This document shows positions 948-13,191 of a stretch of DNA of 13,656 nucleotides, one piece after another. How positions within the stretch are numbered: the first letter of the stretch is position 1; the number at the start of each line of letters is the position of its first letter. The notes under the pieces were generated by a model. The model made no database searches. It saw only the letters and a list, made by a program, of their open reading frames with translations, and was not told where the DNA came from. The DNA is from an uncultured archaeon. GTDB lineage: Archaea > Asgardarchaeota > Thorarchaeia > Thorarchaeales > Thorarchaeaceae. The position numbers and the translations under genes are program-made. The DNA lies in NCBI GenBank assembly GCA_964590575.1, contig CAZPWM010000085.1, positions 1 to 13,656 of the forward strand, read 5' to 3'.

Positions 948-2798
948 GTGAATACATTGGTAAAAGAGACTTGGTCAGTAGATAAGTCTAGATTAGTCTA
1001 TGGTGTAAATCGTAATGATCTACATTTTTTGGACATCACAGAGGACGGAGAACTCTGTTTACGATTACGTGACCAGACAATCACATTCGTTGAAGTCATT
1101 CAGAGAATTAGGGAAATGAATGGTGATTCTCCCAGCTATGCGTCATCATTCACTCTCCGAGTACCTCAGCTAGTGACTTATCAGGTAAAGAAACTGAAGT
1201 CGGTCTTTCAGCGAGCTATCAATGAGCTTGACTATGGTGGCAAGTTTATCGGCATCTATCCGGTAAAGGTCAACCAACGAAAGGATTGTGTCACTGCGAT
1301 TATTCGTTCGGACAACGATTATGGTTTGGAAGCAGGTACAAAGGCAGAACTTCTTCTAATAAAGAAGGTCATCGAGAGTGAGAAACACAGGCACATTGTA
1401 TGTAATGGAGCCAAGGATCCTGAGTACCTTGGTCTAATCAAGAAGTGTATTAGTGAGGATTACAACATAGCAATTTCTATTGAATCCCTCCACGAAGCTC
1501 GATTAATAGTTGAACGTTTCCAACCAGAAAAGACCAATCTTATTCTTCGAATCAAGCCCTACCTCAGTGTAGAGGGGCATTGGTCACATTCCACAGGGAG
1601 AGATTCAAAATTCGGTCTGAGTATTCATGACCTATATGATGTTGTAGAACTGCTGAAAGAAACTAGCTTCGTGAATTCAGTTCAAACGATTCTTGCACAT
1701 GCAGGCTCTCAGATAACTGATATTGAATCATTCGAGAAATTTGGTAGACTACTGACGAAACTCTATGCAGAACTAAAAGAAATGGGACTGTCTAATCTAG
1801 AGAACATTGATTTTGGTGGGGGGTTAGCTATTGACTACACAAGTTCGCATGGTTCAGATTTCATGTATCGATATGCACATCTGCTAATTTCAGGCGTAAA
1901 AGCACAACTCGCAGATATGTACGATAAATATCCACCACCAAACATAATGATCGAGTCAGGACGAGGGGTTACAGCTCTATCCACCATGGTCATCGTTGAA
2001 GCTCTTGAAGCTCGGTCTATATTTCCATCATCCAGAGATGATTACATTTCCGAAATCACCGAGGATGATGAAAGGAAGACACTTGATAGAATCAAGAAAG
2101 CTTCAACACTCGTGGAGATTAAAGAAATCTGGAACAAGTTCCATGAGAAATATGGTGGCTTGAATCTTGCTGGAATGAAATTCATACTCGAACAAGAGAT
2201 GGTCACTGGGACTCTAGAAGATGCCGTTCGGGAAAGACTTGTCGAATTGAATCTGAAATCATATGAGATAGAAGGGTTGGTCAGAAGCTTCTGGCATCCT
2301 GAACATATTGTCATCGGCAACTTTAGTGTCTTCAATAGTATTGCGGATCATGTTTTGGTGAAACAGCATTTTCCGGTCATCCCAGTACGGGACCTCCATC
2401 TAAAACCTCAAACCACTGTACGTCTTGTAGACATTACATGTGACTCCGATGGTGAAATAACACAGTTTTATAGACCAACCACCAGCGAGGTGTGGTTTAC
2501 CACTGATAACAGGCTCTTGACTATGCTTGAAGGAAAAATGGGGGAGGGTATTCCGGTGGGTAGTCTAGAGAATGTCCCTGGTTCTTGTTTTGTTCTTGCG
2601 CTTACAGGTGCCTACCAAGATGCTATCGAGATGGATCACAATCTGCTTGGTGATCTCCCAGATGTTGAATTGTATCTTCAGGATGATGGAAAGTGGGGTC
2701 TCTCATGGGTCACAGGCGCTGAGTCAATTGAGCATCTCCTAAAGGATGTCGGTTACGCTGACATCGATGTGGATGAAGACCCGTACATGGCAGAGTGA
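948..2798 (+). CDS. speA: Biosynthetic arginine decarboxylase (PLP fold type III, SpeA-like)
   Basis: YPVKVNQ (PLP Lys107), GLEAGTKAEL, CNGAKD, SKFGL, HAGSQI, IDFGGGLAIDY, ESGR, NFSVF, DITCDSDG, GAYQD..HNLLGD. The 616-aa length matches SpeA rather than ODC/LysA. Confidence 0.88.
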   Translation: MNTLVKETWSVDKSRLVYGVNRNDLHFLDITEDGELCLRLRDQTITFVEVIQRIREMNGDSPSYASSFTLRVPQLVTYQVKKLKSVFQRAINELDYGGKFIGIYPVKVNQRKDCVTAIIRSDNDYGLEAGTKAELLLIKKVIESEKHRHIVCNGAKDPEYLGLIKKCISEDYNIAISIESLHEARLIVERFQPEKTNLILRIKPYLSVEGHWSHSTGRDSKFGLSIHDLYDVVELLKETSFVNSVQTILAHAGSQITDIESFEKFGRLLTKLYAELKEMGLSNLENIDFGGGLAIDYTSSHGSDFMYRYAHLLISGVKAQLADMYDKYPPPNIMIESGRGVTALSTMVIVEALEARSIFPSSRDDYISEITEDDERKTLDRIKKASTLVEIKEIWNKFHEKYGGLNLAGMKFILEQEMVTGTLEDAVRERLVELNLKSYEIEGLVRSFWHPEHIVIGNFSVFNSIADHVLVKQHFPVIPVRDLHLKPQTTVRLVDITCDSDGEITQFYRPTTSEVWFTTDNRLLTMLEGKMGEGIPVGSLENVPGSCFVLALTGAYQDAIEMDHNLLGDLPDVELYLQDDGKWGLSWVTGAESIEHLLKDVGYADIDVDEDPYMAE

Positions 2799-2804
2799 TA
2801 TCTC

Positions 2805-3617
2805 ATGCAGATCACAACCAAGATCAAGTTTGATGATATTTGCAATATGCTATCAGGAAAAAGTATTCTTGTGGCATTCAGTGGAGGAGTAGATAGTACA
2901 GTTTTGGCTCACATTGCGAAAAAGTGTGCATCAAAGATTATGCTACTAACAATAGTGAGTCCAACGGTCCCAGAGAGTGAGCTTCGCGGCGCAAGAACCG
3001 TCGCGAAAGAATTAGGTCTCCAGCTGAAAGAAGATTCAGTCAATTGGCTCAAAGTAAGTAACCTTTCCGAGAATCCAGTTGACAGATGCTATACCTGCAA
3101 AAGGGCTCTAGCAGATCTCTGGTTGAAAAATGCTCAGAAGTTAGGATTTGGTACTGTCATTGAGGGGACAACTGCTACAGAAACTGAAGGGTATCGACCG
3201 GGGCTTGCAGCATTGAAGGAGTCAGGTGTAGATTCTCCATATCTTCAAGTAGGAGTCACAAAAGCTGAGATACGGGAATATGCCAGAGAGAACCATCTCT
3301 CCATCGCAGAGAAACCATCGGGGGCATGTCTTGCATCGCGATTTCCATATGGTACTGAAATAACAGTTGAACGCTTGACAATGGTCACGACAGTAGAAGA
3401 AAAGGTGCGAGAAATTTTTGGAGTTGAATGTGTTCGTGCGAGATTTCATGGAAACCTTGTCCGGGTCGAGGTAGGGTCAGAGGAACTTTCTAAGATGTAT
3501 GACCCAGAGAAACTCCATCAATTGGATAACGCAGCTAAAAATGCAGGATTCACTTATGTCACCCTAGATTTGCAGGGATACAGAACCGGAGCCATGGATG
3601 AAGGCTTGTCTAGCTAA
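2805..3617 (+). CDS. larE: LarE-family ATP-dependent sulfur transferase (PP-loop), with CxxC..C motif
   Basis: PP-loop VAFSGGVDS, NPVDRCYTCK, RPG, SPY..TKAEIR, KPSGACLASRFPYG, RARFHG..RVEV and YVTLDLQGYRTGAMD are LarE hallmarks. Confidence 0.88.
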   Translation: MQITTKIKFDDICNMLSGKSILVAFSGGVDSTVLAHIAKKCASKIMLLTIVSPTVPESELRGARTVAKELGLQLKEDSVNWLKVSNLSENPVDRCYTCKRALADLWLKNAQKLGFGTVIEGTTATETEGYRPGLAALKESGVDSPYLQVGVTKAEIREYARENHLSIAEKPSGACLASRFPYGTEITVERLTMVTTVEEKVREIFGVECVRARFHGNLVRVEVGSEELSKMYDPEKLHQLDNAAKNAGFTYVTLDLQGYRTGAMDEGLSS

Positions 3618-4791
3618 TACAAATCAGTTCTTTTTGCGGTTTCGAGAGAAACTTACATCCTTGTCGAGTTATGAGAATATCCTCTTCAAGGCTGACCTGA
3701 CCGTAATGCTCAGTGGTCACATAGAACTCGAGGGTGAAAACATTACCCACTTCTACAACACCCATGGGGCTATCTCCATATCGTTCCCATTTTGGGCCAA
3801 GAAGCGTACCGCCATCATGAGCCAGTCGACCAAGTTGGTGACCCAATGCGTGTTGATATTCTTCATAACCCGCAGCCTTCACAAATTCACGAGCTATATT
3901 GTCAACCTCGTAACCCACAGCTCCAGGTCTGATCAAATCAGCCGCCGCTTGAATGCCATCCCGGACTGTTTCGAAGGCATGTTGTACCTCAGAGGGAATA
4001 TCCTTCTTATCCCCAAAGAAGAACATACGCTGAATATCTGAGCAATATCCATTGTATTTCACACCAAAATCGAAATGAAGTAGGTGACCTTCCAAGGTCT
4101 TGTTGTCTATTGGACCTGCATGGCCAAACTGTTTGTAGGGGCCTGCATCAACAGCGGGATTGTGATCCGCTTCCCAAGCATTGGTTACTCCATATTCATT
4201 CATACACTTGTGGAAGTAATCGTAGATTTCTATCTCAGTCATGTTAACCTTAACGAACTTCTTAGCACGTTCATAAATCTCCTCTGTGATTTCAATAGCT
4301 CTACGAATTCTTGAGACCTCTTCAGCTGTTTTCCGACCTCGTAATTTACGAATGTGGTACTCAGCAGACATCAGACGATTGCTATATGGTGTGTTCTTGA
4401 GGTAATCCTTCAGAAGCAGATGCATTCCAACACTTAGTCCATCAGCAGCAACATCATTCACACTGTAGTTAACTGCAATCTTCTCAGGATTTTTTCGTTT
4501 GAGTTGTTTGACTAGTTCTTCACGGATACTTGCTGTATAAGGAATGACCGTATCGAAGATTCCCTTTGACTTCACACCATCTGCATCAAAGTTCCCAACA
4601 ATCGCAATCTTCTCGTCCCGAGTGAAGATAAGAGCCGATTGCCAGGTAAGCTCACCACCAAACACTAGTTCGAGTACTGGGTCTGCCATTTGAGAGGTTT
4701 CTCGAACCCAGACGAGCCAAGCACCAATATCCTGTTCTATGAGTATCTCGCATGCCTGCTTGGCTTTCTCCTTCTGTATTGCATAGTCCAT
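3610..4791 (-). CDS. M24 family Xaa-Pro aminopeptidase/dipeptidase (creatinase N-domain plus pita-bread domain)
   Basis: Metal-ligand motifs FDFG..YCSDIQR, HALGHQLG..HD, TLEFY, LEEDILI, plus LRGRKTAEE. Start moved to ATG 4791 (MDYAIQ): it is preceded by GGTGAT and lies 1 nt after the ADH stop. The longer ORF would overlap the ADH gene. Confidence 0.9.
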   Translation of the reverse strand: MDYAIQKEKAKQACEILIEQDIGAWLVWVRETSQMADPVLELVFGGELTWQSALIFTRDEKIAIVGNFDADGVKSKGIFDTVIPYTASIREELVKQLKRKNPEKIAVNYSVNDVAADGLSVGMHLLLKDYLKNTPYSNRLMSAEYHIRKLRGRKTAEEVSRIRRAIEITEEIYERAKKFVKVNMTEIEIYDYFHKCMNEYGVTNAWEADHNPAVDAGPYKQFGHAGPIDNKTLEGHLLHFDFGVKYNGYCSDIQRMFFFGDKKDIPSEVQHAFETVRDGIQAAADLIRPGAVGYEVDNIAREFVKAAGYEEYQHALGHQLGRLAHDGGTLLGPKWERYGDSPMGVVEVGNVFTLEFYVTTEHYGQVSLEEDILITRQGCKFLSKPQKELICIS

Positions 4792-4792
4792 A

Positions 4793-5905
4793 TCAATCAC
4801 CATGTGGCTTGATAACAGCCTTGAGTGAAACTTGCTTCTCCTGTGCCTCGAGTGCTTTCTGAGCATCATCTAGAGAGAATCTATGAGTAACCAACTCTTC
4901 GAACGGGAATCGGTCATAGTTTTCTGCAACTGTCTTGATGCCTTTGTAAACATGAAGTGTTCTCGATCCCCAGACAGTCTTGATGTCAAGGTGCTTCTTG
5001 TTCATCAGGTGAGTATTGATCTCAACTGTCCCATGGTCTGTGTATTGACCACAGATCGAGTATGCTCCACCATCACGAACTAGCTCAATTCCTTCGGGGA
5101 TTGCACGTGGATTGCCAGTTGCTTCGTAGACAATATCTGGTCCGTGACCGCCTGAAATCTCCCGAAGCTTCTCCTTTCGCTCTTCTAGGGTGGTCTCTCC
5201 AATATTCAGTGTATCTGTGGCTCCAAACTTTTTAGCAAGGTCAAGACGATTCTGCGCCTTATCCAGAACGGTCACTGATGCTGCTCCACTCACACTTGTT
5301 AGAATGGCAATCATCAATCCAACAGGTCCAGAGCCTTGAATTGCTACATTCGCACCCCAAGTCATAGGACTACGAAGAACTGTATGGACCGCGGTCGGCA
5401 TTGCGCAACCAACAGCACTGGCTCCCTCGAAACTCACGTGATCTGGCAACTTCATGATGTGGGTTCCAGGTTTGAGATAAAGGTACTCGGCATACCCGCC
5501 TATCAATCGTGGAAACTGTGATGAGTCCATGGTGATTCCGTAGACCTTTCGATTCGGACACTTGGTGGGAGCATCCGCAATTAGGCAGTAGTAGCACGAG
5601 AAACACGTGTCAGTGACATCATGAAATCCTACACGGTCTCCAACCTTCAGCTCATAACCATCTAGGTCCTTAATGGGTTTAGGACCAATAGTTTCGATTG
5701 TTCCAACAGCCTCATGTCCTAGGATTAGGGGATACGGTACTCCTGCGAGTTTTCCGTGCCATAGGTGGACATCTGTCCCGCAGCACCCAGCCAATCCAAC
5801 CTTCATCAGGGCGGCACCTGGTTCTAGTTTGGGAAGTTCATATTCCTCAATTATCAGATCTGCACTTGGTTTTGGAACAACAGCAGCTCGACTTGTCTTT
5901 GCCAT
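4793..5905 (-). CDS. Zinc-dependent alcohol dehydrogenase (MDR family, TM0436-like), probably NAD-dependent
   Basis: Catalytic Zn GCCGTDVH and GHE. Structural Zn CFSCYYC-x7-C. Rossmann QGSGPVG with an acidic residue in VLDK. Confidence 0.9.
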   Translation of the reverse strand: MAKTSRAAVVPKPSADLIIEEYELPKLEPGAALMKVGLAGCCGTDVHLWHGKLAGVPYPLILGHEAVGTIETIGPKPIKDLDGYELKVGDRVGFHDVTDTCFSCYYCLIADAPTKCPNRKVYGITMDSSQFPRLIGGYAEYLYLKPGTHIMKLPDHVSFEGASAVGCAMPTAVHTVLRSPMTWGANVAIQGSGPVGLMIAILTSVSGAASVTVLDKAQNRLDLAKKFGATDTLNIGETTLEERKEKLREISGGHGPDIVYEATGNPRAIPEGIELVRDGGAYSICGQYTDHGTVEINTHLMNKKHLDIKTVWGSRTLHVYKGIKTVAENYDRFPFEELVTHRFSLDDAQKALEAQEKQVSLKAVIKPHGD

Positions 5906-5950: not shown

Positions 5951-5998
5951 GATTTAAACGAGTCCGAATGGACGAGGTTGGATAATCAAACTTATAAG
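5951..5998. promoter_or_regulatory. Divergent archaeal promoter region: BRE/TATA-like AATCAAA-CTTATAAG for the tusA operon and TTTAAA box for the adh-peptidase operon
   Basis: CTTATAAG at 5991-5998 follows an A-rich BRE-like stretch and lies about 25-40 nt before the candidate tusA starts. TTTAAA at 5953-5958 lies upstream of adh on the minus strand. Confidence 0.5.
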
Positions 5999-6029
5999 AG
6001 ATAATTAACAATTGTTAGGTGTGAAATCC

Positions 6030-6275
6030 GTGTCAAATATGGAACCAGTTGAGAGCCTAGACTGTGTGGGGCTATTCTGTCCGCAACCACTTTTTCAGAC
6101 CCGAGAGGCAATTGATGGGTTGAAACCCGGTGAGATACTTGAGATGCTATCTGATGATCCAGCCGCAGAGGAGGACATCAAGAGGTTTGCTAAGAGGACT
6201 GGGAACATCCTTTTGAGCTTCGAGCGTCTTGAAGATGGCGTGCAGAGGTTTCTCATCAAAAAGAAGGAGGAATAA
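6030..6275 (+). CDS. tusA: TusA/SirA-family sulfur carrier protein
   Basis: LDCVGLFCPQP (CPxP persulfide Cys), GEILEMLSDDPAAEEDI and C-terminal FLIKK. Start uncertain: GTG 6021, GTG 6030 after AGGTGTGA, or ATG 6039. Confidence 0.92.
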   Translation: MSNMEPVESLDCVGLFCPQPLFQTREAIDGLKPGEILEMLSDDPAAEEDIKRFAKRTGNILLSFERLEDGVQRFLIKKKEE

Positions 6276-6278
6276 CAT

Positions 6279-6632
6279 TTGAGTAGCATCCTTTATGTAC
6301 AGACCAGTGACCAAGCTGAACGGCAGTATTCTCCATTTGTCTTAGCGCAGAGTGCAAAGGCGATGGATATTGATGCAAAAGTTTACTTCCTAGGACAAGC
6401 GTTAAGGGTCCTTGAACCTGGAGCAGCAGAAAAAATCAAGATAGGCAGCTTCCCTAGTCTTCATGAAACAATGAAGAAGACAATTGAGATGGGGATTCCA
6501 ATCTATGTATGTGAAGCTTCCAAACAGATGTTGGGTTGGGACAAAGTGGAACTTGACCCAGATCTGAAGATCGTTGGAGCTGCAACACTCAATGACCTTG
6601 TTCTAGAAGCGGACGCAACTATGTGGTTCTAG
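6279..6632 (+). CDS. DsrE/DsrF-like family sulfur relay protein
   Basis: 117 aa. A..AKAMD..AKVYF.G.A, GIPIYVCEAS (single conserved Cys78), IVGAAT....LEAD..MWF. TTG start with GGAGG RBS, 3 nt after the tusA stop. Confidence 0.85.
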   Translation: MSSILYVQTSDQAERQYSPFVLAQSAKAMDIDAKVYFLGQALRVLEPGAAEKIKIGSFPSLHETMKKTIEMGIPIYVCEASKQMLGWDKVELDPDLKIVGAATLNDLVLEADATMWF

Positions 6633-6653
6633 TTCAAGTTTGTGGGGATTGAA

Positions 6654-7817
6654 ATGAAACAAGTATACCTCGATTATCAGAGTGCAAAACCAGTTGATCT
6701 TAAAGTAATGGAAGGAATGATGAAGTATTTCCATGAGTCGTTTGGAAATCCATCATCTTTACATCATGTAGGAGATGTAGCTACAGATGCACTAGAGGAA
6801 AGTAGAAAGAAGATAGCTGGCTTCATTAATGCTGATGAGGACGAGATTATCTTCACATCTGGAGCAACAGAAGCTATCAATCTGGGTATTATTGGCTATG
6901 CTCTGAGGAACAAAAAGAAAGGCAATCATATCATAATTTCTGAGATAGAACACATATCGATACACAACATTGCAAAGTACCTTGAAAGAGAGGGATTTAC
7001 TATCTCAAAGGTTCCTGTTGACCAATTTGGTAAGGTAAGTCTGAGGAAACTCGAACAACGAATAACGGATAAAACAATTCTCATTTCTATAGGAATGGCA
7101 AGCAACGAGATTGGAACCATTCAACCAACTAGTGAGATTGGGAAACTAGCTGCTGAGAAGGGAATCGCATTCCATACAGATGCAGTAGCTGCAGAAGGAC
7201 TTGTTCCGATTGACGTTAAGAAAGATAATATCAACCTCATGGCACTCTCATCTAATGATCTCTACGGGCCTCGTGGTGTAGGAGTGATGTATATGCAGAA
7301 AAAGTACAGAGTCAATCCTATTATCATTGGAGGCGGTCAGGAGAGAGGCTTTAGATCTGGTAGCGAAGACATTCCTGGAATTGTAGGAATGCGGTTCGCA
7401 GCAGAAATAATGCAAAAGGAAATGAACACTGAGATTAAGCGATTCCAAGAGTATCGGGATAGAATGATAAAACAGGTACTAGATGAAGTGCCTGATAGTC
7501 ATCTCAATGGACATCCCAAAGACAGACTTGCATCTAATGCTCATTTCAGATTTGATGGGATTGAAGGCGAGTCGATTCTGCTTTCATTCAAAGATTTAGG
7601 TATCTCTGTTTCAACCGGGTCCGCTTGTACATCAAAAACACTTGAGCCATCGCACACTCTAATTGCTACTGGACTTTTGCATGAAGAAGCACATGGGTCG
7701 CTTCAACTTACTGCGGGTAGATTCAGTACAGATGATGATATTGATATAGTACTTGAAGCCGTACCAAAGGTGGTTTCACGACTAAGAGAACTATCTCCAA
7801 TTTACAAAACAAAGTAA
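6654..7817 (+). CDS. iscS: IscS/NifS-family class V PLP-fold protein, atypical (PLP Lys replaced by Asp); probably not an active cysteine desulfurase
   Basis: YLDY..P, FGNPSSLH, IIFTSGATEA, EH, NEIGTIQP, HTDAV, GGGQERGFRSG and STGSACTS identify group I IscS. The SxHKxxGPKG motif reads SSNDLYGPRG. ATG 6654 preferred over GTG 6642. Confidence 0.92.
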   Translation: MKQVYLDYQSAKPVDLKVMEGMMKYFHESFGNPSSLHHVGDVATDALEESRKKIAGFINADEDEIIFTSGATEAINLGIIGYALRNKKKGNHIIISEIEHISIHNIAKYLEREGFTISKVPVDQFGKVSLRKLEQRITDKTILISIGMASNEIGTIQPTSEIGKLAAEKGIAFHTDAVAAEGLVPIDVKKDNINLMALSSNDLYGPRGVGVMYMQKKYRVNPIIIGGGQERGFRSGSEDIPGIVGMRFAAEIMQKEMNTEIKRFQEYRDRMIKQVLDEVPDSHLNGHPKDRLASNAHFRFDGIEGESILLSFKDLGISVSTGSACTSKTLEPSHTLIATGLLHEEAHGSLQLTAGRFSTDDDIDIVLEAVPKVVSRLRELSPIYKTK

Positions 7818-7829
7818 GGGTAATGGAAG

Positions 7830-8609
7830 ATGAAATCAACTAAATATAGTGAAAAAGTTTTAGATCATTTCCGCAATCCACGGAATGTAGGAACTCTTGA
7901 AGGAGATGATGTAGCGGTAGGTAAGGTTGGTAATCCAACTTGTGGAGATATCATGGAGGTCTTTATTCGCATCGATGGAGATGTTATCACCGATGCCAAA
8001 TTCAGAACCTTCGGTTGTGGGTCTGCAATAGCGACGACAAGCATGACGACTGAGATGGTCAAAGGAATGACCCTTGATGAGGCAATGGAGTTAACTCGTC
8101 AAGATGTCGCTGATGAATTGGATGGACTGCCACCAATTAAGATGCACTGCTCTAACCTTGCAGCTGATGCCTTACACGAAGCAATCAAAAGTTATCGGAA
8201 AGGCAGAGGCGAAGATGTACCTGAAGAGAACGAAAAGGTGAAGGAAGAGGTTGAGTGTCTTATTGGGAAGGATGAGTTTCTTAACAAAGGACTCTATCTT
8301 AATGTAGAAGATATTAATGAGTTCAAGGATCGAAGAACTCTGATTCTTTATTCAGGCGATGAATCAGTAGAAACTGCAATAAATATTTCAGAGGTCAGTG
8401 AACGCGTGATTCTTCTCACACCAGATGAAACCCTTGTACTCAATCCAGATCTTGCTGAGAAACTCGCAAGCTCCGGAGTTAAAGTCTTGTATCAATCGAA
8501 ACTTCTTGAGATTCGTGGCGAGTTCGAAGTTGAAAAAGTTCTGATATTTAATATTGATGAGGATGAAGACTATGAACTCTTCGTTGACGCTGTCGTAATC
8601 ATTGAATAA
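7830..8609 (+). CDS. iscU: IscU/NifU-N Fe-S scaffold fused to a degenerate thioredoxin-reductase-like Rossmann domain
   Basis: YSEKVLDHFRNPRNVG, GNPTCGD, FGCGSAIA and LPPIKMHCSNLA (three Cys plus Asp and His). About 117 extra C-terminal residues resemble the TrxB NADPH domain. Confidence 0.9.
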   Translation: MKSTKYSEKVLDHFRNPRNVGTLEGDDVAVGKVGNPTCGDIMEVFIRIDGDVITDAKFRTFGCGSAIATTSMTTEMVKGMTLDEAMELTRQDVADELDGLPPIKMHCSNLAADALHEAIKSYRKGRGEDVPEENEKVKEEVECLIGKDEFLNKGLYLNVEDINEFKDRRTLILYSGDESVETAINISEVSERVILLTPDETLVLNPDLAEKLASSGVKVLYQSKLLEIRGEFEVEKVLIFNIDEDEDYELFVDAVVIIE

Positions 8610-8653: not shown

Positions 8654-9115
8654 ATGATAGATATCAAACCTGCAACTCCAGAGGATATTCCATTAATCGA
8701 GGAGATGTATAGGAGGGAGGTTGAGGACCACGCGGAACGAGCTCAAACATTCGCAGAGGACCTGGTTCTGAGATACAAGACCCTTCTTGCTGTCAAAGAT
8801 AATACTGTGTGCGGAACAGTATCATGGGAACCTCGAGGGGGGTTCGACGATGGTGTGGTCGAGATGATTGGGCTTGGTGTGAGTGAAGGTTTCAAGCGTC
8901 AAGGCATAGCGACGAAGCTGGTTGATGAGATGATTGAGGTGGCTTCACAGTTCTTTACATCAAAGGGATATTCTTTGAGGGTAATTCTCCTGTTTATGGA
9001 GCGAGAAAATGAAACCGCGCGAAAATTCTACTCCGTAAACAGATTCAAAGAGGTTGCTACTATACCCTCACTCTATCCAAGCGATGATGCATCCATCTGG
9101 ACGCGTCATCTCTGA
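8654..9115 (+). CDS. GNAT family N-acetyltransferase
   Basis: IKPATPEDIP N-terminus, acetyl-CoA motif A GVSEGFKRQGIATKL, and motif B ENETARKFY...F. Confidence 0.88.
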   Translation: MIDIKPATPEDIPLIEEMYRREVEDHAERAQTFAEDLVLRYKTLLAVKDNTVCGTVSWEPRGGFDDGVVEMIGLGVSEGFKRQGIATKLVDEMIEVASQFFTSKGYSLRVILLFMERENETARKFYSVNRFKEVATIPSLYPSDDASIWTRHL

Positions 9116-9136
9116 ATTCATTTCGGGTGAAACCAC

Positions 9137-9823
9137 ATGACCAAGGGACCAATCATTGGAACCCTACAAGAGCGGTCTCTGCATGCCAGCTTGAAGGAAC
9201 TCTACATGACCGGAGATGCAAGAGACGAGGTGTCGATTGATGGATTTGTTGTGGATGTTATCAGAAATGGACTCATAATTGAAATTCAGACTCGAAATTT
9301 CGCGGCTATCAAGAACAAGCTATCTTCGCTTCTCAAGAATCACCCTGTCAGACTCGTGTATCCGCTACCCAAGAAAAAGTGGATAGTGAAAGAAACGCCA
9401 GATGGAGCGAAACAGCTCAGTCGAAGGTCTTCTCCCAAGAGTTGTGGATTTGAAGATGTTTTCAATGAGCTTGTGCGAATACCAAATTTTATAGCTCACT
9501 CAAATTTCTCAATCGAGGTGTTGTTGACCGAGGAGGAAGAGATTCGCCGCCAAGATGGACAAGGGAGCTGGCGGAGAAAGGGGTGGAGTATCGTGGATCG
9601 GAAACTTATCACTATCATTGACAAGCGTCTGTTCGAAAAACCACTGGACTTCCTGCAATTCATCCCAGACACAATTGAGAGACCTTTCAAGAATTCAGAC
9701 CTTGCGAAAGCTCTTGGTATACCACAACGACTCGGCCAAAGACTGACGTATTGTCTGAGAAAGATGAATGTTCTAAAAAAAGTTGGTAAAGAAGGAAATG
9801 CGCTCCTGCATGACATCGGATGA
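9137..9823 (+). CDS. Hypothetical protein, PD-(D/E)XK/restriction-endonuclease-like N-domain with C-terminal winged HTH
   Basis: ERSLH..LK, EV.IDGFVVDV, IIEIQT pattern. C-terminal SDLAKALGI......YCLRKM.VLKKVGKEGNA. GGGTGA RBS 6 nt before ATG. Confidence 0.65.
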   Translation: MTKGPIIGTLQERSLHASLKELYMTGDARDEVSIDGFVVDVIRNGLIIEIQTRNFAAIKNKLSSLLKNHPVRLVYPLPKKKWIVKETPDGAKQLSRRSSPKSCGFEDVFNELVRIPNFIAHSNFSIEVLLTEEEEIRRQDGQGSWRRKGWSIVDRKLITIIDKRLFEKPLDFLQFIPDTIERPFKNSDLAKALGIPQRLGQRLTYCLRKMNVLKKVGKEGNALLHDIG

Positions 9824-11445: not shown

Positions 11446-11802
11446 CTAATGACAGCTGTTGTCAGCGAAACAATTCTTGAGAACAGCATGCATGACTGCA
11501 CCTCGAGCTTCGTCAATGTCGGGAAGACCACTAATGAATTCCTCGCATACTCTCATTGCAGGAAGTCCAACGGGGGCAGGAAGTCCGCAGCCATCATCAT
11601 CACCCTTCGCGACATCGACTGTCCGGATAACGGAAGGTGAAAGGCCAAAATCAGAAATGACGCTATACATGATCTCTAAAGCAGCATCACAAAGAACACA
11701 TTGTTCGCTTGTGTACAGAATTATGCATGCACATCGACCGCACTCAGTCCGCTCTCTTTTGTAAGAAACATAGGTTGATTCTTGTTTTACCGTCATTTCC
11801 AA
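11446..11802 (-). CDS. Cys-rich thioredoxin/glutaredoxin-fold protein
   Basis: IILYTSEQCVLC (CxxC after a beta strand), IRTVDV, cis-Pro-like GLPAMRV and FISGLP. Start TTG 11802 or ATG 11796. Confidence 0.75.
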   Translation of the reverse strand: MEMTVKQESTYVSYKRERTECGRCACIILYTSEQCVLCDAALEIMYSVISDFGLSPSVIRTVDVAKGDDDGCGLPAPVGLPAMRVCEEFISGLPDIDEARGAVMHAVLKNCFADNSCH

Positions 11803-12015: not shown

Positions 12016-13191
12016 TTACAGGACTTCCAGGCCAGTCATCAGATCATCCAACAAATCTGCTGAATCTTCTATTCCTATAGACAAACGAACCGTGGATTCT
12101 GAGATACCCATCTCATTGAGAGCTTTCTCGTCAAGACCATAATGCGTAGTCAGTGCAGGAATGCTTGCCAAGCTCTCGACACCTCCTAGTGATACTGCAT
12201 TCAAGAAGATTTGAAGAGAGTCTACGAACTTGCTTGTCCCGGCCAAGTCGGAATCAAGGGTTATCGCCATCATGCCTCCAAAACCATCCATTTGTTTCTT
12301 AGCTACATCATGTTGAGGATGACTTGCAAGACCCGGATAATGAACTTCTCTGATTCGTGAGTCATGGGACAGTTTCTCAGCCAAAGACATAGCATTCGAG
12401 TTGTGCTTCTCCATCCGGACTCCAAGTGTCTTAATCCCTCGATCAAGAAGGAATGAGGCAAATGGGTCCATGGTACCGCCGAGTAATTTTGCAGCGCTGC
12501 GAACGTCTGCCATCAACTCTTTTGAGCCAGAGATAGTCCCTGCGATTATGTCACTGTGACCACCGAGATATTTGGTTGCACTATGCATCACAAGGTCCAC
12601 ACCCAATGTGTGAGGTCTCTGGTTGATTGGAGAGCCAAATGTACTATCAATCATGCTAATTGTACCCGTTTCACGAGCTGCATCGGCAACTTTCTTGATA
12701 TCAATAATCTTCAATGTGGGATTGGTAGGGGTTTCAAAGAAACAGAGTTTATAGGAGGATCCGGAGTCTGAGAGTTTATCAGCGAGTTCATCTGTATCAA
12801 CATAGTCAACCTGAATACCATTAGGTGAGAGTATCTTGTTGAAGAGATTGACAGTTCCTCCGTAGATCGAATCACTTGAGAGAATGCGCTCGCCACTTTT
12901 TACATGACCCATTATAGCTGAAGAGATAGCAGCCATCCCAGATGCCAGAACGTGTGTGTCTTCTGTGCACTCCAATGCATTGATTTTCTCTTCAACGCTC
13001 TTCGTTGTTGGATTACTCCATCGTGTGTATACATCTTTCCCGGTTTTACCCTGTACTGAGTCAAGCATTTGTTGTTGATTCTCAAAGACAAAGGTGGAGG
13101 TTTGGACAATAGGGACCACCGCAGGTCCGGATGTTTGTGTGTGTTCACCCTGAACGCAGAGAGTGGATGGTTGTCTTTTCCTAGCATTCAT
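12016..13191 (-). CDS. Cys/Met metabolism PLP-dependent enzyme (cystathionine gamma-synthase/gamma-lyase family)
   Basis: PIVQTSTF, YTRWSNPT, ASGMAAI, YGGT, ETPTNP, DSTF.SP, HSATKYLGGHSD (PLP Lys intact), YPGL, AVSLGGVESL, VRLSIGIE. GGAG RBS upstream. Confidence 0.92.
   Translation of the reverse strand: MNARKRQPSTLCVQGEHTQTSGPAVVPIVQTSTFVFENQQQMLDSVQGKTGKDVYTRWSNPTTKSVEEKINALECTEDTHVLASGMAAISSAIMGHVKSGERILSSDSIYGGTVNLFNKILSPNGIQVDYVDTDELADKLSDSGSSYKLCFFETPTNPTLKIIDIKKVADAARETGTISMIDSTFGSPINQRPHTLGVDLVMHSATKYLGGHSDIIAGTISGSKELMADVRSAAKLLGGTMDPFASFLLDRGIKTLGVRMEKHNSNAMSLAEKLSHDSRIREVHYPGLASHPQHDVAKKQMDGFGGMMAITLDSDLAGTSKFVDSLQIFLNAVSLGGVESLASIPALTTHYGLDEKALNEMGISESTVRLSIGIEDSADLLDDLMTGLEVL

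Follow-up and report, generated by a model that had tools for sequence, protein, structure and literature searches.

An IscU-type iron-sulfur (Fe-S) scaffold gene with an additional C-terminal domain is found on contig CAZPWM010000085.1 of an uncultured archaeon of the Thorarchaeaceae. The 13,656 nucleotides of this contig that were analyzed are referred to here as the window. The gene is a single open reading frame (ORF) on the + strand at positions 7830..8609 with a translated sequence of 259 amino acids (aa), and it is the last gene of the order tusA-dsrE-iscS-iscU-tail. The protein displays an intact IscU core at aa positions 1–128, followed by a disordered acidic linker and a tail at positions 143–259. 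It belongs to a minimal IscS-IscU (MIS) machinery to which a pseudo-reductase domain has been added, the tail having the fold of the NAD(P)H-binding domain of thioredoxin reductase (TrxR).

The fusion is real and conserved, and it is apparently undescribed. A first-pass annotation, made from the DNA letters without database searches, had known of no description of it, and the literature search agrees: no IscU-reductase or IscU-NADPH-domain fusion was found, the paper that defines the MIS and SMS systems (ref 67 of PMC13066941), which could mention domain architectures, being outside the coverage of the search. The available portions of PMC6857552, PMC12872458 and PMC13066941 do not mention the fusion.

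The IscU core and the degenerate NAD(P)H-binding domain

The IscU core matches Pfam NifU_N (PF01592) at aa positions 5–125 with 162.8 bits (cut-off 22; E-value in Table 1), and it scores 192 bits with NCBIfam TIGR03419 NifU_clost, above the cut-off of 187.9. The best PDB match is 7c8m_A (E-value = 1.1e-50), and 4eb5_C is also matched (E-value = 7.1e-44). Residues C38, D40, C63, H106 and C107 are invariant in all 21 rows of the core alignment (A1). The three cysteines, together with D40 and H106, correspond to the cluster-ligand residues of IscU. By these sequence matches the segment at positions 5–125 is a bona fide IscU. IscU chains in the PDB are 118–159 aa long, and none bearing a tail was found there. 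Three-domain NifU (TIGR02000) has an N-terminal IscU-like domain in common with the fusion; however the fusion scores 149.2 bits, below the cut-off of 273.3, with a match confined to residues 5–137, and the Bfd-like or Nfu domains of three-domain NifU are not detected in it by Pfam.

The tail had been aligned by eye with the NADPH segment of TrxB, and profile and structural comparisons bear this out. The tail is similar to NCBIfam TIGR01292, thioredoxin-disulfide reductase (E-value = 1.3e-12), at profile positions 119–232 of 300, which correspond to the NADPH domain. The score is about 45–47 bits and falls far short of the curated cut-off for the whole family (343.45); Pfam Pyr_redox matches are likewise sub-threshold (17.6 bits, compared with 22). 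Twenty-two distinct PDB sequences are matched at an E-value of 1 or less, the best being 2zbw_A (3.9e-7) and 3f8d_A (6.6e-7), and in these alignments tail residues 4–116 are colinear with positions ~130–247 of TrxR-type proteins. Folded alone with AlphaFold2 (AF2; 32 aligned sequences), the tail has a predicted local distance difference test score (pLDDT) of 95.7. A Foldseek comparison of residues 143–259, which had been proposed as a check, gives 3f8d_C as the top match (E-value = 2e-12, TMq 0.91, root mean square deviation (rmsd) 1.8 Å). There are at least 500 PDB matches with an E-value of 0.001 or less, and the approximately 40 that are listed (ranks 1–50) belong without exception to TrxR, TrxR-like ferredoxin-NADP reductase or AhpF. 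The tail therefore has the NAD(P)H-domain fold. It shares this fold and the colinear sequence with low-Mr TrxR and TrxR-like ferredoxin-NADP+ reductases, i.e. 3F8D/3F8P (Sulfolobus TrxR-B3), 2ZBW and 3LZW, at TMq 0.90–0.91, rmsd 1.5–1.8 Å and 24–29% identity.

Unlike these reductases, the tail keeps only about 115 of approximately 310 TrxR residues and is without the FAD domain, CxxC, GxGxxA and HRR; it cannot be a reductase. The redox CxxC is replaced by LxxE (L-N-V-E aligned to C-S-V-C of 3f8p), GGGDSA by YSGDES and HRRD by TPDE, so that the GxGxxA/G loop and the HRR 2′-phosphate site are represented in the window by YSGDES and TPD. No FAD-binding domain is found in the fusion protein by Pfam or NCBIfam, and the chain ends two residues past the last strand of the NADPH domain. 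The first-pass annotation had listed the CxxC, the GGG loop, the HRR motif and the FAD domain as absent, and all four absences stand. The loss of the two nucleotide-binding motifs is not peculiar to the window. In 79 of 80 public loci (described below) D, H, Y or E stands where GxGxxG has its first glycine, and the HRR triplet is variable, e.g. TPD, TSA and TEL. A redox role of the tail is unlikely because the nucleotide motifs are gone throughout the family. The evidence supports a pseudo-domain of the TrxR NADPH-domain fold that has no cofactor motifs.

In a model of the full-length protein both domains are confident but the linker at residues 131–143 is not (Table 1); the predicted template modelling score is 0.49, and the model sets no relative orientation of core and tail. 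The linker varies in length and sequence across alignment A1, and residues 129–145 have a net charge of −5. The tail is also very acidic, with a net charge of −16 and a pI of 4.19. The linker cysteine C143 was considered as a conserved feature and rejected, as it is found in 18 of the 80 loci.

Occurrence, operon and the lysine-less IscS

A search for full-length homologues, also proposed in the first-pass annotation, shows that the fusion is conserved. All of the 120 homologous clusters listed cover 100% of the query, with lengths of 256–260 aa and identities of 75–95%. Where source names exist in this list they are Thorarchaeota or Sifarchaeia. Databases name the fusion simply NifU or IscU, and one of the 120 clusters carries a precomputed Pyr_redox match. 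In a sample of 301 genomes from the phylum, the listed matches include near full-length ones (from residues 1–4 to residues 252–259) in the organism's own family (f1), in families f9, f24 and f30 and in one f22 genome. The listed IscU-only matches come from several other families and cover approximately residues 3–140.

A scan of public genomes, one per species, was made with the tail alignment and the pattern EKVx[IVM][HLF][DN][LFI][DN]E. It confirmed 191 of 359 candidate stretches, and the best 80 loci were kept; because the pattern was used for the scan, tail columns 93–102 are conserved in these loci by construction. Judged by record titles, 52 of the 80 are archaeal (Thorarchaeota, Promethearchaeota, Hermod-, Hod- and Odinarchaeota, Candidatus Lokiarchaeum ossiferum and "uncultured archaeon") and 28 bacterial (Zixibacteria, WOR-3, Stahlbacteria, Aminicenantes, Actinomycetota, Thermodesulfobacteriota, Fibrobacterota and others). 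The tail lies in frame behind the IscU core in 77 loci, and the other three start at a contig end. An assembly chimera or a gene-calling artefact is rejected as an explanation and is hardly conceivable: the same single ORF recurs in these 77 independent public records, some of them complete chromosomes, and in each of the 120 clusters listed, and no point in favour of an artefact was found.

Tail residues R169, A183, R192, G230, Y248, L250 and D253 are found in all 80 loci, archaeal and bacterial, and K218 and F251 in 79. E235 and E244 are also invariant, but these are located inside the columns of the search pattern. Residues of what was once the nucleotide pocket are also retained: G176 in 79 loci, S/T179 and A183 in 80 and T197 in 78; D177 is conserved as well.

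The order of genes is also conserved. Among 14 distant loci (L014–L027, with up to 6 kb per side where the contig allows), 13 have IscS directly upstream of the fusion, 12 have TusA and 11 have DsrE. Within 2.5 kb of the fusion, 72 of the 80 public loci were found to have an IscS, 63 a TusA and 46 a DsrE. In the window 12 bases separate the end of iscS from the start of the fusion gene. The features of the locus are given in Table 1.

Table 1. Genes and protein segments at the fusion locus (window positions).
Feature	Positions	Strand	Basis
tusA-like sulfur carrier gene, 87 aa, first gene of the operon	6012..6275	+	Pfam TusA, E 7.9e-23
dsrE-like sulfur relay gene, 117 aa	6279..6632	+	Pfam DsrE, E 7.3e-17
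iscS/misS-like gene, 391 aa, without the pyridoxal phosphate (PLP)-binding lysine	6642..7817	+	best PDB match 4eb5_A, E 2.4e-131
IscU scaffold core, residues 1–128	7830..8213	+	NifU_N 5–125, E 5.2e-48; TIGR03419
acidic disordered linker, residues 129–142	8214..8255	+	pLDDT <50 at 131–143
tail, isolated degenerate NAD(P)H-binding domain of TrxR/TRLF fold, residues 143–259 and stop	8256..8609	+	TIGR01292, AF2, Foldseek
GNAT acetyltransferase gene	8654..9115	+	Pfam Acetyltransf_1, E 2.6e-11

The IscS of the window has SSND in place of S-x-H-K, with D206 where the D199K variant 4r5f has a lysine, and it keeps the loop cysteine C329. Both SSND and C329 are invariant in the 19 rows of the IscS alignment (A3). 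The ND motif is found in all 68 readable IscS genes located beside a fusion, and none has a lysine. Eight tail-less Asgard IscU genes were examined; each has an upstream IscS, in which the lysine site is ND in six cases and NS in two. Both tusA and dsrE accompany six of the eight, and neither was found in L117 and L118. Since the tusA/dsrE operon is also found with a tail-less IscU, the operon does not depend on the tail.

The closest characterized system is IscS2-IscU of Archaeoglobus fulgidus (4EB5, 4EB7, 4HVK; D199K variant 4R5F), which is of the minimal MIS type and, as in the window, has a two-gene iscS-iscU core. The window IscS resembles A. fulgidus IscS2 in the aspartic acid at the PLP-lysine position, in the retained loop cysteine and in overall sequence. 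However the solved A. fulgidus IscU chain, of 153 residues, has no reductase-like tail, and the window operon adds tusA and dsrE. According to the portions of PMC8918507 that were available, A. fulgidus IscS is devoid of desulfurase activity and perhaps contributes no more than a cysteine ligand, with sulfide as a possible sulfur source. By analogy, as the same lysine substitution is present, the window IscS is presumably not a desulfurase. In minimal systems with a lysine-less IscS, the source of sulfur and electrons and the role of the "dead" IscS are matters of debate, according to the parts of PMC8918507 and PMC13066941 at hand.

In the organism's own assembly (91.45% complete) the fusion is the single NifU_N match and no match to the SufBD family was found; SufBD is present in 28 of the 61 sampled genomes of the family. 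For these reasons the tail-bearing IscU may be the sole Fe-S scaffold in many of these organisms.

Shorter and longer homologues were also compared. Stand-alone copies of the tail were considered and rejected, since eight of 19 shorter representatives still include part of IscU and are cut gene calls. Seven of these have the end of IscU, either at their start (P0124, P0126, P0129, P0134 and P0156, which start with MHCSNLAADAL) or within the sequence (P0127 and P0138, which contain LPPIKMHCSNLAADAL), and the eighth, P0131, holds IscU pieces. The N-termini of P0128, P0133, P0135, P0140, P0145 and P0146 are unrelated. Among 120 listed longer IscU proteins (455–2000 aa), precomputed Pfam matches show no reductase domain; 117 have LAGLIDADG/intein families together with NifU_N, and three are IscS-IscU fusions (P0244, P0292 and P0343). 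The IscU homologues of 480–580 aa from other archaea (P0233–P0352) mostly have LAGLIDADG/intein Pfam domains inside the scaffold, and their names include Thermoplasmatales, Methanomassiliicoccales and Verstraetearchaeota. At L020 (G240:C171, positions 5998–6651) a fusion homologue is without the first ~60 IscU residues, with no IscS, TusA or DsrE within 6 kb, and is possibly a decaying or displaced copy. P0121 has a tail homologue (76% identical) followed by a stretch of ~55 residues that are nearly all D/E with a few W.

The GNAT gene is found 3′ of the fusion in all 11 same-genus loci (L003–L013) and in L023, and in none of the other 13 distant loci. Its membership of the system is doubtful because the downstream position is limited to close relatives. 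A 228 aa ORF with no Pfam match, which together with the GNAT gene occupies window 8654–9823, also follows the fusion in 10 of the 11 same-genus loci and, of the distant loci, in L023 only. Elsewhere in the window, a 147 aa ORF at 3598–4041 (+) has no family match, lies almost wholly within an M24 peptidase gene on the opposite strand (3610–4869, −) and is probably not a gene. The M24 peptidase gene, with its ATG at 4869, overlaps the 3′ end of a zinc-dependent alcohol dehydrogenase gene (4793–5905) by ~77 bases; thus its true start may be further in. Other neighbours, at 2–916, 948–3617 and 12016–13191, are an open-ended dCache/HAMP sensor, a PLP-dependent Orn/Arg decarboxylase, a PP-loop ATPase and a Cys/Met-metabolism PLP enzyme. 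The presence of the last near the fusion is consistent with a sulfur-metabolism neighbourhood.

Predicted docking of the tail on IscS

A complex of two IscS copies (alignment A3) and one tail (alignment A2), all with the window's own sequences, was predicted. The ipSAE values are 0.77, 0.76 and 0.77 in three runs, and the best of three controls is 0.00; the ipSAE mark employed is reached by 116 of 157 solved complexes and by 2 of 215 mismatched pairs. At least 93% of the contacts are common to the runs, and the partner pLDDT is 90 or more. No solved complex of IscS with such a tail was found in the PDB comparison. The predicted contacts on the tail are 25, 27, 49–50, 76, 78, 89–90, 93–94, 106 and 108–111 (add 142 for the protein numbering), and those on IscS are 101, 122, 125, 127–128, 136, 139–140, 341–344 and 346–347. 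Predicted charge contacts are IscS K136 with tail E235, and IscS 127–128 with tail R169 and R192; these are invariant and complementary.

Two comparisons that are independent of the predictor support this interface. In the 80 loci, outside the 10 pattern columns, 7 of the 13 tail contacts are at least 95% conserved, compared with 8 of the 94 other columns (Fisher p = 2.7e-4). On the IscS side, 84 tail-associated rows, which comprise 82 distinct sequences and in some cases share a genome, were compared with eight tail-less Asgard IscS sequences. A position was considered discriminating when at least 95% conserved in the tail-associated rows and common to at most one tail-less row. Six of 391 positions discriminate, i.e. 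51, 101, 136, 318, 339 and 341. Three of these, E101, K136 and I341, are among the 14 predicted IscS contacts (p = 6.9e-4), and 339 adjoins them. The predictor could not have exploited this contrast, as it was given tail-associated IscS only. The 4eb5 IscS of A. fulgidus has A101, F136 and M341, whereas E, K and I are found in all or nearly all tail-associated IscS. The E. coli IscS equivalents are K101, E136 and R340.

The tail can also be compared with accessory proteins of E. coli. CyaY/frataxin and IscX, and also ThiI, dock on E. coli IscS close to its active-site loop; CyaY and IscX are acidic, as is the tail, and the tail is predicted to lie on the segment that aligns with E. coli 340–346, I341 aligning with R340 and H347 with D346. 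In the portions of Shi et al. (2010; PMC2854127) that were available, R340E weakens the binding of ThiI, CyaY and IscX and leaves IscU binding unaffected; predicted contacts 101 and 122–140 are not among the E. coli mutants listed there. The fold of the tail is unrelated to CyaY, IscX and ThiI, and the tail is covalently tethered to IscU. The resemblance is one of possible working mode and not of family membership.

The best explanation of the whole, and a probable one, is an MIS-type Fe-S scaffold whose pseudo-enzyme tail docks on IscS near the Cys329 loop. The gene would encode the scaffold of an Archaeoglobus-type MIS system; its IscU core is intact. In the tail the NAD(P)H-domain fold, of the Rossmann type seen in TrxR-like flavoreductases, is kept, whereas the FAD domain is lost, as are the motifs that bind the dinucleotide and the 2′-phosphate. 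Tethered by a flexible linker of ~15–20 residues, it is predicted to dock beside the mobile Cys329 loop at IscS residues 101, 122–140 and 341–347. The surface used would be the N-terminal edge of the parallel sheet and the beta-meander (R169, R192, K218, E235, Y248 and L250–D253). This would give IscU a second grip on a lysine-less and presumably non-desulfurase IscS. The contact may stabilise the complex or position the Cys loop, and the tail site may overlap the acidic-partner site (CyaY, IscX, ThiI) of E. coli IscS. The predicted docking mechanism is computationally well supported. As to the tail itself, docking on IscS is its best-supported function from the modelling and is held to be reasonably likely. 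The first-pass annotation had proposed a pseudo-domain for docking, e.g. to a thioredoxin-fold protein or sulfur carrier; its docking part agrees with the prediction, but the partner indicated is IscS and not a thioredoxin-fold protein.

Several points weigh against docking on IscS. The complex score is the model's own confidence, and the job, with two IscS copies and custom alignments, differs from the calibration set. The prediction covered the tail alone with IscS as its only partner, and simultaneous binding of core and tail to one IscS dimer would depend on the linker. The tail-associated IscS sequences form one clade; the 84 rows are therefore not independent, and only the position-wise enrichment carries weight. 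According to the same portions of PMC2854127, D346R of E. coli IscS left the partners tested undisturbed, and hence any overlap with the CyaY/IscX footprint is partial at best. The conserved residues G176, D177, S179, A183 and T197 could be structural, or a ligand could still be bound.

The last point leads to a different reading, in which the Rossmann pocket of the tail still accommodates a small ligand, such as NAD(P)H, ADP or a similar nucleotide, and the tail serves as a redox or metabolite sensor or as an entry point for electrons. The conservation of the pocket residues is in its favour, as are the predicted IscS interface, which leaves the former nucleotide-pocket face unused, and the complete IscU-flavoreductase fusions described below, which retain GGGNSA and HRK. 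However the first glycine of GxGxxG is replaced in nearly all loci and HRR is variable, there is no FAD domain to receive electrons, Pfam NAD-binding models remain sub-threshold, and the beta1-alphaA turn and the packing of helices can account for the conserved pocket residues. Ligand binding is therefore judged quite unlikely. It is unlikely, too, that the tail docks another partner (TusA, DsrE, ferredoxin or a glutaredoxin/thioredoxin-like protein) that supplies sulfur or electrons, the IscS prediction being a false positive or secondary. The TrxR NADPH domain bears a thioredoxin-docking surface, the tail is very acidic, and tusA and dsrE are conserved in the operon; but the same two genes are present in six of the eight tail-less IscU operons, so the carriers do not need the tail, and the residues that changed together with tail gain are located on IscS. 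The thioredoxin-like ORF at 11446–11802, which had been put forward as a partner for pull-downs, does not hold up: it is a sub-threshold Glrx-like match (E-value = 0.009) and is not beside the fusion in the 14 distant loci. This ORF is on the − strand, is 118 aa long and has a CVLC motif.

It is very improbable that the tail has no specific function and persists only as an inert relic of evolution or as a solubility tag. The loss of every catalytic motif would agree with this, as would the long stem of the tail clade (0.89 changes per column in the careful NADPH-domain tree, below). An inert relic, however, would be expected to decay or vanish, whereas the tail is kept at full length with a confidently predicted fold, and R169, R192, Y248, L250 and D253 (and K218 in all but one locus) are maintained in archaea and bacteria alike.

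Complete IscU-flavoreductase fusions and the origin of the tail

Complete fusions of IscU with a flavoreductase also exist. P0170 (443 aa), found in the search of representatives, has NifU_N at 6–127 followed by a complete Pyr_redox_2 domain at 138–426, and it displays GGGPAG, GGGNSA and HRK but no CxxC. Its relatives of 433–454 aa are named Methanoperedens, Methanosarcinales or "uncultured archaeon", and P0454 is named Jordarchaeaceae. As in the window, these proteins join an IscU core to a domain of the same reductase family; unlike the tail, they retain the whole FAD domain, GGGNSA and HRK. At ~444 aa they bear no annotation beyond "NifU" or "thioredoxin reductase", and no paper on them was found in the literature search. 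In the phylum sample the complete fusion (residues 1–448) is present in all six genomes of family f19 and in no other family. In one of the six, at L031 (G064:C208, positions 1456–2802), it is broken by one in-frame TAG between the IscU and reductase parts, which might reflect an error in sequencing, a gene that is split or one that has become a pseudogene.

The relation between the tail and these proteins was assessed by profile and by phylogeny. The tail profile scores complete fusions higher (75–94 bits) than free reductases of other lineages, which reach 79 bits at most. Only three Methanoperedens-named entries of 303–324 aa, which show 78–90% identity to the reductase part of P0170, have comparable scores (80–82 bits). 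In NADPH-domain phylogeny (72 rows by 118 columns) the tails form one clade (100/100). A quick tree joins this clade to 12 complete fusions and P0191 (SH-aLRT 92), whereas a careful tree places the tails elsewhere with weak support (57/76, 78/74). A joint clade of tails and complete fusions is not rejected by the approximately unbiased (AU) test (delta lnL 4.56, p = 0.39). The NADPH-domain tree is thus undecided on the origin of the tail.

More informative is the IscS tree (41 rows by 401 columns, quick method, E. coli as outgroup), which includes one operon with a complete fusion. All 31 tail-associated IscS sequences, archaeal and bacterial, fall in one clade (SH-aLRT 98). The IscS beside the complete fusion is the sister of this clade (SH-aLRT 92), and tail-less Asgard IscS sequences are outside. 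Because of this sister position, the tail may be a relic of a complete fusion. The tree, quick as it is and with a single full-fusion operon, fits one origin of the tail from a complete fusion with later transfer between the domains of life. Such a change requires two deletions, as parts of the FAD domain are located before and after the NADPH domain. The parent was probably a TrxR-like flavoreductase without CxxC, given that P0170 also has none, and the redox disulfide may never have been present. The first-pass description of a stripped TrxR domain thus holds for the TrxR-like NADPH fold and its missing motifs, but it perhaps does not hold for the CxxC.

The findings can be combined, tentatively, into one possible history. 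The tail would be the remnant of an IscU-tethered flavoreductase that once fed electrons into a cysteine-independent Fe-S assembly supplied by sulfide or by carriers. The FAD domain would have been lost in one lineage, and the orphan NAD(P)H domain reused as a clamp or regulator on the catalytically dead IscS, at the site of the frataxin-like and ferredoxin-like partners in classical ISC. The module tusA-dsrE-iscS-iscU-tail would then have spread between Asgard archaea and anaerobic bacteria, where it is often the sole Fe-S scaffold found.

MIS systems with a lysine-less IscS have a widespread, unannotated third domain in Asgard archaea and many anaerobic bacterial phyla. The predicted tail-IscS interface is concrete and can be tested by mutation, and a candidate for the electron donor of the ancestral system can be seen in the complete IscU-reductase fusions. 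If the prediction is correct, the tail would be a clean example of a catalytic domain turned into a binding module.

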